From Gammaproteobacteria bacterium (lineage in GTDB: Bacteria; Pseudomonadota; Gammaproteobacteria; Ga0077536), in contig JAYODW010000004.1 of assembly GCA_038116745.1 (NCBI GenBank), forward strand, positions 50,408-114,407: a stretch of DNA of 64,000 nt, given 5' to 3'. This document shows, one piece after another, positions 38,888 to 44,049 of the stretch. A program made the translations under genes and the position numbers. Numbering within the stretch: position 1 is the stretch's first letter; every line of letters begins with the position of its first letter. The notes below the pieces were generated by a model. That model was not told the DNA's origin. It saw only the letters and a program-made list of their open reading frames with translations, and searched no databases.

Positions 38888-39904
38888 TCAGGGGTGGGTT
38901 TCGTCGAGAAAAGGGGCCAGCAGCGCCTCAGTCAACGCCTCAAGCTGTAAGTCCCGTTGCAACACACGCTGCGCTGCATCAGATTCAACGACTTCCATAA
39001 GATCGACTGCAACTTCAGCAAATTCGCTCGCTTTTTCCAGATTCAAGCCTCGCGTCTGGGTAATCAGATTGCGCACCACTACGGCACTGGATCGCCCTGC
39101 CACCTTGAGCAGCACCCCTGCACCTGGGACCGTGCCCAACACGCTCAAGGCGCGCTCAGCGTCCGACACCATCTCGCCACTGAACGCGCTCTTCCCCGAC
39201 AGCGCCGTGTACAGCGAGAGCAGGTTGCCCACCACGGGCGTCGCATCGAGTAGCGTACGCGCCGCTTTTCCAATGACGGTGGGCCTGACGGACAGATACC
39301 GAGCTGCACCGCTGAAGACGTCTTCGCCTTTTGCTTCAGCGAAAAAGGCACCGACGTTGGCCGCAAGCTGTACGAGCGGGTTCTCCTCAGATTCAGTCTG
39401 ACCGACCTCAGTCAAGCGGAACTGCATCGCAGGAATCAAAGGCCAGCGTCCGTAGACCCTGGCGGCGAGCTCAGGTGCCCAAGTCAGCTCCATTGATTCG
39501 GCGTGAAACAGCTCGGATCTTTCCAGCTGGGTCGTGAATGCACCCAGAGCCCGGGCGCAAGCCTTTGCTGTCTTCGGATCAAGTCGAGTGGGAGCGGGAT
39601 GTTCCTTGGCCAGGGCTGCAAGCCGCAGAAAGTCCCGTTTCCCATCCGGCAGCAGTGCGCCGATCTGACGCGCGGTGATTGTGGCAAAACCTGCCGGCAC
39701 CAGGGACTGATATTGCTCGGCCGACAATTCCTGCACCTGCGCTGCACTCAGAGCCTCCACCTGCGACCTCGAAAAAGCCGGGAGGTGACGCTTGCAGAGA
39801 TCTACGCACTGGCTGGTCGTATCACCCGCCGCTACGTCGACAGCGGCTACCTGCTCAGCAGGGCACTGGTGCCCGAACAGGTCATCGAAGACGGCGTAGT
39901 CCAA
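38888..39904 (-). CDS. hypothetical Ala/Leu-rich protein of unknown function (the first 45 codons cross an inferred rearrangement junction)
   Basis: Non-Arg-rich composition with no recognisable family. The open frame upstream of about 39776 overlaps the TpsB fragment and may not be translated. Confidence 0.4.
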   Translation of the reverse strand: MDYAVFDDLFGHQCPAEQVAAVDVAAGDTTSQCVDLCKRHLPAFSRSQVEALSAAQVQELSAEQYQSLVPAGFATITARQIGALLPDGKRDFLRLAALAKEHPAPTRLDPKTAKACARALGAFTTQLERSELFHAESMELTWAPELAARVYGRWPLIPAMQFRLTEVGQTESEENPLVQLAANVGAFFAEAKGEDVFSGAARYLSVRPTVIGKAARTLLDATPVVGNLLSLYTALSGKSAFSGEMVSDAERALSVLGTVPGAGVLLKVAGRSSAVVVRNLITQTRGLNLEKASEFAEVAVDLMEVVESDAAQRVLQRDLQLEALTEALLAPFLDETHP

Positions 39905-41113
39905 CTGCAGGTCATTGAGGGCTATGTCGATTCAGTTACGGTTGAAGGGGTGCACAGCACCCGCTCAGGTCTGCTGGGGCACTACGGAGACCGAATCAAG
40001 GCCAGCCGCCCGCTCAAGCGCGCGGTGCTGGAGCGATATCTGTTGCTGGCGAACGATATTCCAGGTCTGCGTTTCAAGGCGGTGCTGAGTCCGTCTGCTG
40101 CAAACACAGGGGCGGCTGCGCTGACGCTGACTGCCTCTGACGCACGCTGGTCAGGCTCGGTCAGTTTTGACAACCGGGGCGCCGACTACAGCGGGCCCTG
40201 GCAGGGCCTGATCGAGCTCAGCGGCCATAACCTGCTGAGTCTGCTGGAGAGCACGACCGTGCGCTACGCGACGGTTCCTGATGACCTTGAAGAGCTGCAC
40301 TACTGGGCGGTCCGCCATGAGCAGCTCCTGAGCGCGGAAGGACTGCGTCTGGCAGTGGACGTCAGCGGCGCGGATAGTGAAACGGCTTCGGCTGTGCTGA
40401 GCGCACTGGAAGTCGAGACCCAAACGCGAAGCGCGGGACTCACCGTGAGCTACCCGATCCTGCGCTCGCGCGAGCGCAATCAGCGCGCGAGTGTCGGGCT
40501 CGCCATGAAGGACGCTGAGGTCGAGCTACTGGGAGCGATCTACGACCAGAGCGATGGTTTCGGAGGAGGCGGTGTGACCGTCCTGTCGGCTTCTGTGGTG
40601 CAGGGGCTGGACATTATCGATGCGCAGGTAACCAGCTATGTTTCAGCTGATCCGGATTTTACTTACGTATCCCTTTACGCCTGGCGTTCACAGCATCTGT
40701 TCGAGTCCCTCCGGGCCGATGTGCGGCTTTCGGCCCAGCTGACCAATGAAAGTCTTCCCGCGATCGAGCAGGCCGGGCTTGGCGGCGAGCATACGGTGCG
40801 CGGCTATGAGTCTTCAGAGTGGACGGGCGATGAGCTGGTCAACACGTCGCTCGAGCTGGTTTATCAGCTGCCGGCGCCCAGGGTGGAAAGCGTGCAGCTG
40901 CACGGTTTTTATGACTACGGCAAGATCTGGCGCAACAACCCGCAGGTGGGAGAACGCCGGTCGCAGTCAGCCGATGCGAGCGGTGCGGGCACGCGAGTGA
41001 AAATCACGGACCGGCTCGGGCTTGACCTTGAGGCCGCGCGGACGCTGGATGATGACAGCGAAGGCAAATCACGCGGATGGGAGTTTTTTATGCGCGTCCG
41101 CGCGGAATTTTAG
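39779..41113 (+). pseudogene. TpsB (ShlB/FhaC-family) transporter, C-terminal portion from mid-POTRA1 to end, lacking signal peptide
   Basis: Reads REVTLAEIYALAGRITRRYVDSGYLLSRALVPEQVIEDGVVQLQVIEGYVDS (POTRA_2) followed by a beta-barrel ending FMRVRAEF. No signal peptide is present. The track ORF's first 92 codons are spurious read-through. Confidence 0.65.
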
Positions 41114-41218: not shown

Positions 41219-43408
41219 ATGAAGCGGATCAGAAAAGTCCAGGTGTCGACCGGCGTTTACTGGGTAGAAGTGCCGGACGCCAACGCCTACGTGCTCTGCG
41301 GAGCGCCTGCCGACAGCACCAAGCATCTGTTCAAGCGCGGTCTGATCGTTCCCACCGAGAACGACGGTGTGAGTTTCGAGACGGGTCCGAACATCATCTT
41401 GCTTTCAGATCTGATGCTGCAGAACGGCATGTTCTGCAACATGGTTGAATTCCCCATACTGCAGATGCTCTACCGTCAGGGCATGTTGATCCCGGGACAT
41501 CCGAACAACACGGGCCAGAAGCCGCTCCTGGTCGGGTCACCGGATCAGATAGAAGCGCAGCTGCAGTACATCTATCGCGGTAATTACGGACTGGTTTCGA
41601 CCGAGGAGCTGATGGACGCGGGCATGGCTCCGTCAATGGCCGACGAGCTTATGGAAATGAAGCTCAAGTTCGCCTTCGGAAAGATTCACGACACGCTAAA
41701 TTTTCTGGAGACCTGTCCGCTCGGCGCGGCGCGGGTGGAAATCCGCCCGGGGCTCGGGCTGAGGCGGGTGCGGGCGAACGTTTTCGAATTTGATTACGAC
41801 GAGGAGTCGGTCACGATCGACCTCAATCTGGGTAACCACGAAAAATACAGTTCTCCTATTCCGCTCGATTTCCACAACATACAGAAGGAGTACTTCGCGG
41901 TTATCCACAGCGGAGAGGGCGACGGGTGGGATACCGATCGCTCAGCGATGATGTCCATTCTGATGTTTCAGGGGAAGGTGTACCTCATCGATGCTGGTCC
42001 CAGTGTCATTCAGATCCTCGAAGCGCTGGGGATCTCGGTCAATGAGGTTGAGGGAATCTTCCACACGCATTCCCATGACGATCACTTTGCCGGTCTACCG
42101 GCATTGATGAGAACTGATCGACGGCTCAAGTACTTCGCGACGCCCATGGTGCGGGCGTCCGTGGCGAAGAAAATGTGTGCGCTGCTGTCGATGGACGAGA
42201 GCGACCTCGAGTATTACTTCGACATAGAGTCGCTGCAGCACGACACCTGGAATGATATCGACGGCCTGGAAGTGAAACCGATCATCTCCCCGCACCCGGT
42301 CGAAACGACAATCTTTCAGTTCCGCACGCTGTGGGAGGATGGCTACAAGGTATACGCGCACTATGCGGATATCGCCGCGTTTTCCGTCATTGACGGAATG
42401 GTCAAACGAAATGCGGATGAAGCAGGAATCTCGCCGGAGTTTGCCGAGCGCGTGAAGCGGAGCTATCTCGAGCCCGTCGACGTCAAGAAAATCGATATTG
42501 GTGGCGGCATGATTCATGGAGCCGCCAAGGATTTCCGCGCGGACAGCTCAAAGAAAATCGTGCTCGCACATACCGCGCTGGCTCTGAGCGATGAGCAGAA
42601 AGAAATCGGCTCCCAGGCCGCTTTCGGCACGGTTGACGTCCTGATTCCTTCGTTTCAGGACTATGGGCTCAAAGCGGCGTTCGATTATCTGCAGGCGGAT
42701 TTTTCCGACGTGCCCAGTTCGCAGTTCCGGATGCTCCTGAACCATCCGGCGCCAACTCTTAATCCCGGTACCATCGTGGTTCGTGAGGGCGAGGTGTGCG
42801 ATTACACCTATCTCATCCTGAGCGGTTTCGTGGAGATGATTCGGTCATCCCGGCAAGTCAAGCGGCAGCTTTTCGCGGGTTCCATGATCGGTGAAGTGAG
42901 TGCGTTGAGAGAACGTCCGTCCGAGTTCACTTTTCGAACCTTGTCCTATGTCAGGGCGCTGAAGGTGCCGGCACGCCTCTATCGGGACTTTATCCGAATA
43001 AACAACCTCTATTCTCAGGTTGAGCGATTGCACGAAGCGTGGAATTTCCTGATCGAATCCTGGCTCTTCGGCGATGGGATCCCGGATACTGTGCTGAACC
43101 TGCTGGTCCAGAACATCGACCTGCAGGAGCACCCCTGGGGCCACGAATTTGACCTGAAATCAGACCGATCTTTGCGCATGCTCAAGTCCGGCAAGGTTGA
43201 GCTGTACAAGGGTGAGCAGTGTCTCGAGCACCTGCAGCCGGGTGATTTTTTTGGCGAGGAGTGGATTGTCGGCGGGTGGGACTCGGACCGGCGTGTGAGG
43301 GTCGCATCAGATAGCGCCGAGGTTTATGCCATTCGCTCAGAGAAGCTGGAGTACATACCGATCTGTCGCTGGAAGCTGCGCGAGATAGGTGCTCGGCGTC
43401 GTGTGTAG
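41219..43408 (+). CDS. multidomain protein: unknown N-terminal domain + MBL-fold metallo-hydrolase + two cNMP-binding domains
   Basis: MBL motif HTHSHDDHFAG (HxHxDH) with AGP...KVYLIDAGP upstream. The C-terminus carries two cNMP-binding-like beta-barrel/helix units (...GEVCDYTYLILSGFVEM...FAGSMIGEVSAL...; ...YKGEQCLEHLQPGDFFGEEWIVG...). GC is lower than in the surroundings. Confidence 0.75.
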   Translation: MKRIRKVQVSTGVYWVEVPDANAYVLCGAPADSTKHLFKRGLIVPTENDGVSFETGPNIILLSDLMLQNGMFCNMVEFPILQMLYRQGMLIPGHPNNTGQKPLLVGSPDQIEAQLQYIYRGNYGLVSTEELMDAGMAPSMADELMEMKLKFAFGKIHDTLNFLETCPLGAARVEIRPGLGLRRVRANVFEFDYDEESVTIDLNLGNHEKYSSPIPLDFHNIQKEYFAVIHSGEGDGWDTDRSAMMSILMFQGKVYLIDAGPSVIQILEALGISVNEVEGIFHTHSHDDHFAGLPALMRTDRRLKYFATPMVRASVAKKMCALLSMDESDLEYYFDIESLQHDTWNDIDGLEVKPIISPHPVETTIFQFRTLWEDGYKVYAHYADIAAFSVIDGMVKRNADEAGISPEFAERVKRSYLEPVDVKKIDIGGGMIHGAAKDFRADSSKKIVLAHTALALSDEQKEIGSQAAFGTVDVLIPSFQDYGLKAAFDYLQADFSDVPSSQFRMLLNHPAPTLNPGTIVVREGEVCDYTYLILSGFVEMIRSSRQVKRQLFAGSMIGEVSALRERPSEFTFRTLSYVRALKVPARLYRDFIRINNLYSQVERLHEAWNFLIESWLFGDGIPDTVLNLLVQNIDLQEHPWGHEFDLKSDRSLRMLKSGKVELYKGEQCLEHLQPGDFFGEEWIVGGWDSDRRVRVASDSAEVYAIRSEKLEYIPICRWKLREIGARRRV

Positions 43409-43475
43409 GGGTCGCGAAGGTGTCGCAGCCCCGATCTCGCGGCGCTTGAAAATCGGGCATTCATCGAGGAAAGAA

Positions 43476-43739
43476 ATGCCGATGCGCTGTCTCACGCACC
43501 CCAGTGCTGAATCTAACGCAGAGCTGATCAGCCCATCTTGGAAAAGCGAGTCGGAGAAAGTCGGGCTCAAGGCGGCCTGTGCGGCTGCGGCCTTTTTTCT
43601 TGGAGGACTAGCGTCGCAGCAGTTGGCTGCGAATCCCGAGGGCGGCCGGGTCGTTGCGGGGGCTGGTTCTATCGCGACCCAGGGTGAGACGCTTACCGTA
43701 CATCAGCAGAGCTCTCAGGCAATCCTGAACTGGGAGAGC
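43476..43739 (+). pseudogene. TpsA (filamentous-haemagglutinin-type) N-terminal fragment, truncated after NWES of the TPS domain
   Basis: GAGGAAA RBS and an extended signal peptide. Then LAANPEGGRVVAGAGSIATQGETLTVHQQSSQAILNWES, the canonical start of the haemagg_act/TPS domain. Similarity stops at about 43739. Confidence 0.6.
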
Positions 43740-44049
43740 CGAGCATGTCAGCACGCTGCTCCTGGAGCTCAGCGGCGGAAAAAACGGTCGCGCCTTCAAC
43801 CTCGATGCGCGTCAGGGTGAAGCGGATTTCTCCGGCGCCGGTTGGCGCGCTGACGCTGCCGTTTGAGCCCGGAACCGCGACTACGCCGCCCGAAGAAAGC
43901 GCTGAAGGTGCTTGTTCGAAGCGTTTCTCGATCTGTCCGGGTGCCGCGGCCCCGGAAAGCCCCTGGCCCACTGCCGACAGCGGAAACGACAGAAGCAGCG
44001 CGAACCAGACGCTGTTCTGATGTCTACCTTCGGGGAGGCTGACTTTCAT
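43693..44049 (-). pseudogene. TpsB N-terminal fragment (signal peptide + start of POTRA1)
   Basis: MKVSLPEGRHQNSVWFALLLSFPLSAVGQ signal. ...IRFTLTRIEVEGATVFSAAELQEQRADMLG, then unrelated residues and a stop. TpsB-like sequence ends at about 43738, the same point where the plus-strand TpsA fragment ends. Confidence 0.6.

Follow-up and report, generated by a model that had tools for sequence, protein, structure and literature searches.

A candidate nucleotide messenger phosphodiesterase with predicted paired MBL folds and tandem CNB domains, from a widespread bacterial protein family

Background

The turnover of cAMP and cGMP in bacteria is poorly mapped. Atypical class-II cNMP phosphodiesterases related to RNase Z have been recognised only recently (PMC9293780). 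They are defined by the motif [T/S]HxHxDH and include Rv1339 of M. tuberculosis, CpdA of C. glutamicum and YhfI of B. subtilis, all of them single-domain proteins of approximately 250 amino acids, with YhfI forming a homodimer (PMC9293780). A more elaborate arrangement is found in the Dictyostelium class IIb cGMP/cAMP phosphodiesterases GbpA (PdeD) and GbpB (PdeE), in which an MBL domain is followed by two C-terminal cyclic-nucleotide-binding (CNB) domains (PMC11988041). When a cyclic nucleotide binds to these CNB domains, the enzyme is activated to hydrolyse that messenger (PMC11988041; PMC4758236). The tandem CNB domains of the trypanosomatid PKA regulatory subunit, which have a polar residue in place of the cassette Arg, bind purine nucleosides, and CNB domains lacking this Arg can therefore sense non-cyclic ligands with high affinity (PMC10959531).

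Here we describe a 729 amino acid protein encoded within a 64,000-nucleotide stretch of gammaproteobacterial DNA, hereafter the window. Compared by published domain layout, its closest known architecture is that of GbpA and GbpB, with which it shares the order MBL (residues 216-488), CNB (495-610) and CNB (611-729). A cNMP-regulated MBL phosphodiesterase, a concept put forward in an earlier sequence-only reading of this DNA, thus has a precedent in Dictyostelium (PMC11988041). GbpA and GbpB are however eukaryotic, whereas the bacterial family carries Ser or Ala where the cassette Arg of each CNB domain would stand, so that its ligand may differ, and many of its members add hemerythrin or REC, CHASE2 and Cache modules. 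Neither GbpA nor GbpB was among the best 120 matches of either homology search, and the one started from a divergent member gave bacterial proteins only among its best 120. Our preferred reading, which we hold with moderate confidence, is that the gene product is a cytoplasmic two-metal phosphodiesterase under allosteric regulation, a member of the RNase Z-related MBL branch, for which a nucleotide second messenger would be the likeliest substrate.

Results and discussion

An intact ORF with four domains

The ORF listing places a complete reading frame of 729 amino acids, intact from ATG to stop, at 41219..43408 (+), exactly where it had been reported, and it comprises the predicted pseudo-MBL domain, the catalytic MBL domain, CNB-1 and CNB-2. 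The MBL plus tandem cNMP-binding architecture read from the sequence was recovered by Pfam, with Lactamase_B, Lactamase_B_2 and two cNMP_binding units all scoring above threshold. The AlphaFold2 model of the protein has a pLDDT of 90.1 and a pTM of 0.90, and of the ~198 positions with a conservation of 90 % or more, only 6 deviate from the family consensus in this protein. The GC content of the gene is indeed lower than that of the window (0.56 vs 0.63), as had been noticed, but this is a weak argument for acquisition. The GC3 of the gene (0.715) matches that of the neighbouring tpsB (0.708), so that the low GC stems chiefly from the first and second codon positions and reflects amino-acid composition. 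A promoter scan around the gene found no sigma-70-like site, an uninformative negative.

The catalytic MBL domain groups with phosphodiesterases

Residues 216-488 (41864..42682, +) form an MBL domain of the phosphodiesterase type, which in Pfam profile searches scored 37.5 bits against Lactamase_B (PF00753, cut-off 22.7) and 35.3 bits against Lactamase_B_2 (PF12706, cut-off 27). Metal-binding motif II was read from the sequence as T283-H-S-H-D-D-H289 (42065..42085, +), lying within HTHSHDDH at residues 282-289, with H284-S-H286-D-D288-H289 as the HxHxDH proper. It fits [T/S]HxHxDH and so supports kinship to the atypical class-II cNMP phosphodiesterases. Across 36 relatives (alignment A1) T283, H284, H286, D287, D288 and H289 are invariant, as are D258, H359, D384, H433 and H451, and the MBL ligands are likewise invariant in a 17-sequence subset spanning the MBL region. 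The two-metal ligand set, consisting of Asp (I), HxHxDH (II), His (III), Asp (IV) and His (V), is complete; the downstream ligands, which the sequence-only reading had asked to be checked, are present. We infer the assignment of individual residues to the metals from motif order and the alignment with Apyc1. With its full HxHxDH...H...D...H...H set, this domain is probably the live catalytic unit of the protein.

The MBL domain falls within the phosphodiesterase branch that contains Apyc1, YhfI, PhnP and RNase Z, and not within the lactonase or beta-lactamase branches, in keeping with the phosphodiesterase-type hydrolase that had been among the functions suggested. YhfI (6kns) was the top Foldseek match of the catalytic domain (E=3.5e-11, target TM 0.74) and Apyc1 was the best structural neighbour in a further structure comparison; identity to the solved structural relatives is 13-19 %. 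The window protein shares with Rv1339, CpdA and YhfI the signature motif, PF12706 and the RNase Z-related fold, but would differ, according to the model, in having swapped the partner protomer for a fused dead MBL domain, and it adds two CNB domains. It is three times larger than Apyc1, the phage anti-Pycsar phosphodiesterase (7u2r, 7u2s), and scored 18.5 bits against the Apyc1 family PF23023, below the Pfam gathering threshold of 50; its gene, moreover, is not phage-borne and has no defence or anti-defence context. RNase Z equivalogs (TIGR02651 and related) also remained below their cut-offs (41.8 bits vs 292.95 and 39.2 vs 252), as did all other named equivalogs, and the classical class-II phosphodiesterase family PF02112 (yeast PDE1, Dictyostelium PdsA) was absent from the Pfam matches at E ≤ 1.

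A degenerate MBL fold at the N-terminus

Residues 1-215 (41219..41863, +) remained without a Pfam match at a threshold as loose as E ≤ 10, which bears out the earlier remark that residues 1-210 match nothing, although fold comparison gives a degenerate MBL and not a new fold. As modelled, this region is a second, catalytically dead MBL fold without the metal-binding motif, and it packs against the live MBL domain as in long-form RNase Z. Both ELAC2 and Trz1, which are long RNase Z enzymes, superpose on 363-368 residues of the model, so that long RNase Z covers the two MBL-fold domains at once. Alignment of the N-domain profile with the MBL profile by hhalign gave no signal (probability 0.3 %), which limits the relationship between them to the level of the fold.

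Positions at least 90 % conserved account for 34 % of the N-domain and 36 % of the catalytic domain, compared to 8-13 % of the CNB domains, and a family form of ~480 amino acids exists which consists of the two MBL-fold domains alone. The N-domain also carries an inserted helical segment (residues 108-151) that includes an invariant YIxRGNYGL motif, and S63, D64, Q68, R120 and N122 are among its invariant residues. In the model the pseudo-MBL domain appears to pack on the live domain in the manner in which protomers pair in dimers of RNase Z, YhfI or Apyc1, and it probably helps to form the substrate site, which may give it a part in catalysis.

A CNB tandem lacking the cassette Arg

The C-terminal tandem extends over about 235 residues (495-729), somewhat more than the ~200 that had been estimated. 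CNB-1 comprises residues 495-610 (42701..43048, +), with the cassette G558-E559...P567-S568...T571, and CNB-2 comprises residues 611-729 (43049..43405, +), with the cassette G679-E680...S689. The Pfam model cNMP_binding (PF00027) reached 75.8 bits (cut-off 27.5) and matched two stretches, the best being residues 514-593 in CNB-1 and the second lying in CNB-2, which removes the concern raised earlier that the C-terminus might fail cNMP_binding HMMs. The tandem matches PfPKG (profile E=9e-29) and the PKA-R and PKG tandems (Foldseek E ~1e-13), and the trypanosomatid PKA regulatory subunit is among the Foldseek fold matches.

In CNB domains the cassette Gly-Glu contacts the ribose 2'-OH while the cassette Arg, nine residues past the Glu, binds the cyclic phosphate. 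The Gly-Glu pair is retained in most of 75 family sequences, both in CNB-1 (G558 in 73, E559 in 68) and in CNB-2 (G679 in 67, E680 in 66). The alignment with PfPKG places S568 of CNB-1 opposite the cassette Arg, and this column contains Ser in 43 of the 75 sequences, Ala in 16 and Arg in none. At the corresponding column of CNB-2, 689, nine residues past the cassette Glu, the five commonest residues are Ser (33), Gly (7), Ala (7), Cys (6) and Pro (5), and Arg is absent from these five, which cover 58 of the 75 sequences. Two Arg residues of the window protein, R691 and R692, fall 2-3 residues past S689 and are not conserved in the family.

The retention of Gly-Glu together with the replacement of the phosphate-binding Arg by Ser or Ala suggests that the tandem may bind something other than cAMP or cGMP. 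Of the cyclic-nucleotide-gated hydrolase that had been proposed, the fusion of an MBL hydrolase to two CNB-fold domains stands, but with the cassette Arg missing from both domains, gating by cAMP or cGMP is unproven as judged from the residues present, and a cNMP feedback loop of the Dictyostelium type lacks sequence support. The trypanosome PKA sites offer no simple substitute: there a Glu at the PKA-A202 position contacts the ribose, whereas the family has mostly Ser or Ala at this position in CNB-1 and variable residues in CNB-2, so that nucleoside binding cannot be deduced from the likeness. The tandem, which resembles that of PKA-R and PKG, most likely acts as an on/off switch of the enzyme that responds to the binding of a small ligand. 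For the substrate of the catalytic domain, a 3',5'-cyclic mononucleotide would be the leading candidate.

A large family with sensor-domain fusions

Full-length homologues of the protein share 50-68 % identity with it, and the family exceeds 3,000 members, which keep about 50 % identity across many phyla, including Pseudomonadota, Desulfobacterota, Planctomycetota, Nitrospinota, Campylobacterota and SAR324. Members are frequent in organisms of oxic-anoxic gradients such as Magnetococcus, Magnetospirillum, Mariprofundus, Gallionellaceae, Kuenenia and Desulfobacterales. Many carry a C-terminal hemerythrin domain, and N-terminal fusions to REC, CHASE2, Cache(+HAMP) and SBP (SBP_bac_3) sensor domains occur, a pattern which is that of a signalling output enzyme. 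Literature searches found no published work on the family, the one Magnetospirillum MSR-1 match being an unrelated CNB protein; the family is thus large and strongly conserved, with no published function found.

Neither ORF clustering at 75 loci nor a Pfam census of 131 flanking genes identified a family-wide neighbour, and the only neighbours recurring across loci were generic histidine kinases and response regulators. Among 986 ORFs at the 75 loci we counted ~13 GGDEF genes, three cyclases and one EAL gene, and in the absence of a constant partner such sparse occurrences give no clue to the substrate. The survey of fusions and neighbourhoods that had been called for therefore shows the MBL/CNB fusion to be widespread and often extended by sensor domains, but without a conserved partner in the 75 loci. 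Elsewhere in the window, single-sequence phmmer searches, which have low sensitivity, found no cyclase, GGDEF, EAL or extra CNB gene, and there are no tRNA genes within the window. A role in a defence system was considered and rejected, PADLOC giving only weak matches via the CNB region.

The gene lies within a broken TPS locus

Pieces of tpsB and tpsA were confirmed on both sides of the gene, as the sequence-only reading had described. Upstream lies a TpsB (ShlB/FhaC) gene at 39746..41113 (+), which matches ShlB with 75 bits but lacks the signal peptide and the beginning of POTRA, matching only positions 23-76 of the POTRA_2 profile. A detached N-terminal TpsB fragment at 43693..44049 (-) has a signal-peptide-like start and a weak match (E=0.059) to POTRA_2 positions 1-29. 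Similarly, an N-terminal (TPS-domain) fragment of TpsA was located by tblastn at 43389..43820 (+), with residues 50-95 of a Rhodoferax TpsA matching at 43602-43739 (35 % identity, E=1e-4), while the C-terminal TpsA fragment, containing an ALTTAQ repeat, a PT-TG pre-toxin domain (35.1 bits) and a toxin tip, lies at 38888..39904 (-) and is 43 % identical over 276 amino acids to the C-terminus of the Rhodoferax TpsA. That Rhodoferax TpsA is encoded in the same operon as the Rhodoferax homologue of the 729 amino acid protein. The complementarity of the two TpsB pieces on opposite strands points to an inversion of ~39.76-43.75 kb and implies, from the arrangement of the fragments, that an inversion broke the TPS operon in the window, in which case the earlier order would have been tpsB, gene, tpsA. 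Only short, chance-level repeat matches were found at the inversion junctions or as marks of an insertion.

The host, known from a MAG and identified through malate synthase G, is a gammaproteobacterium while the nearest relatives of the protein, at 68 % identity, are from Comamonadaceae, and the protein forms a singleton cluster, which together make horizontal acquisition of the gene plausible. The Rhodoferax homologue with 68 % identity heads an operon that continues with tpsB and tpsA(PT-TG), the genes being separated by 10 and 12 nt. The TPS linkage is not accidental, being shared with this one Rhodoferax lineage of the closest relatives. The earlier view of the gene as horizontally acquired cargo is retained in this form only, with little help from its GC content and with a TPS association that is not peculiar to the window.

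Alternative explanations

The superposition of ELAC2 and Trz1 across both MBL-fold domains would also suit a regulated endonuclease that acts on RNA as RNase Z does, in which the pseudo-MBL and MBL domains cut structured RNA under the control of the CNB tandem. RNase Z models were the top NCBIfam matches (E=6.6e-11 and 4e-10), and the helical insert with its YIxRGNYGL motif could serve as a substrate-binding arm; long-form RNase Z (human ELAC2, yeast Trz1), on the other hand, has no CNB tandem, the window protein lies outside RNase Z by sequence cut-offs, and we regard this explanation as unlikely. The protein might instead be a diiron sensor or scaffold for O2, NO or redox state that cooperates with hemerythrin, with hydrolysis secondary or absent, its MBL site being likened to those of flavodiiron proteins and the Treponema ODP chemotaxis sensor. 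Both of these are among the fold matches of the N-domain, and the C-terminal hemerythrin domains of most relatives and the frequency of the family in oxic-anoxic gradient organisms point the same way, but we judge it improbable. An AHL lactonase or another non-phosphoester MBL hydrolase is the least probable of the alternatives: the ligand pattern HxHxDH...H...D...H is common to AHL lactonases, and the NCBIfam models for AidB, AttM and YtnP gave weak matches (E 0.013-0.058), but these reached only 12.6-14.8 bits against curated cut-offs of 360-425, and the quorum-quenching lactonase entertained in the sequence-only reading is accordingly set aside.

The Rhodoferax operon, the similarity of the two TpsA C-termini and the reconstructed order in the window would favour a task tied to TPS in this lineage, which might be to control how the PT-TG toxin TpsA is expressed or secreted, or to neutralise a nucleotide-derived toxin product, in place of general signalling. 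However, the linkage is limited to a small clade. In a second Rhodoferax lineage a GGDEF-hemerythrin gene lies downstream of the homologue in place of the TPS genes, none of the other ~70 loci has TPS neighbours, and the TpsB proteins of the window and Rhodoferax are only 25 % identical. The protein is furthermore far too conserved across phyla for a toxin-specific accessory, and in the window the TPS genes are broken while the gene itself is intact, all of which makes such a dedicated role improbable.

Returning to the messenger phosphodiesterase, a wider and distinctly more tentative proposal would join the observations into a class of bacterial enzyme that has gone unrecognised, with an active site completed by a dead twin, an Arg-less CNB tandem, hemerythrin input and recruitment by TPS. 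The CNB tandem would respond to a ligand other than cAMP or cGMP, examples being nucleosides, products of the nucleotide monophosphate type and non-canonical cyclic nucleotides, and hemerythrin would add an O2 or redox input in most members. Such an output module might be specific to bacteria of chemical gradients, magnetotactic ones included, and the clade of the window would have recruited it into a contact-dependent toxin (TPS) operon.

Conclusions

The copy in the window is by itself of limited significance, being one member in a decayed secretion locus and plausibly horizontally acquired. If the family does consist of messenger phosphodiesterases, it would represent a bacterial counterpart, and perhaps an ancestor, of Dictyostelium GbpA and GbpB, and, after trypanosome PKA, its Arg-less CNB tandem would provide a second natural example of CNB domains retuned to another ligand. 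The family would also supply a piece so far missing from the signalling networks of magnetotactic, iron-oxidising, anammox and sulfate-reducing bacteria.

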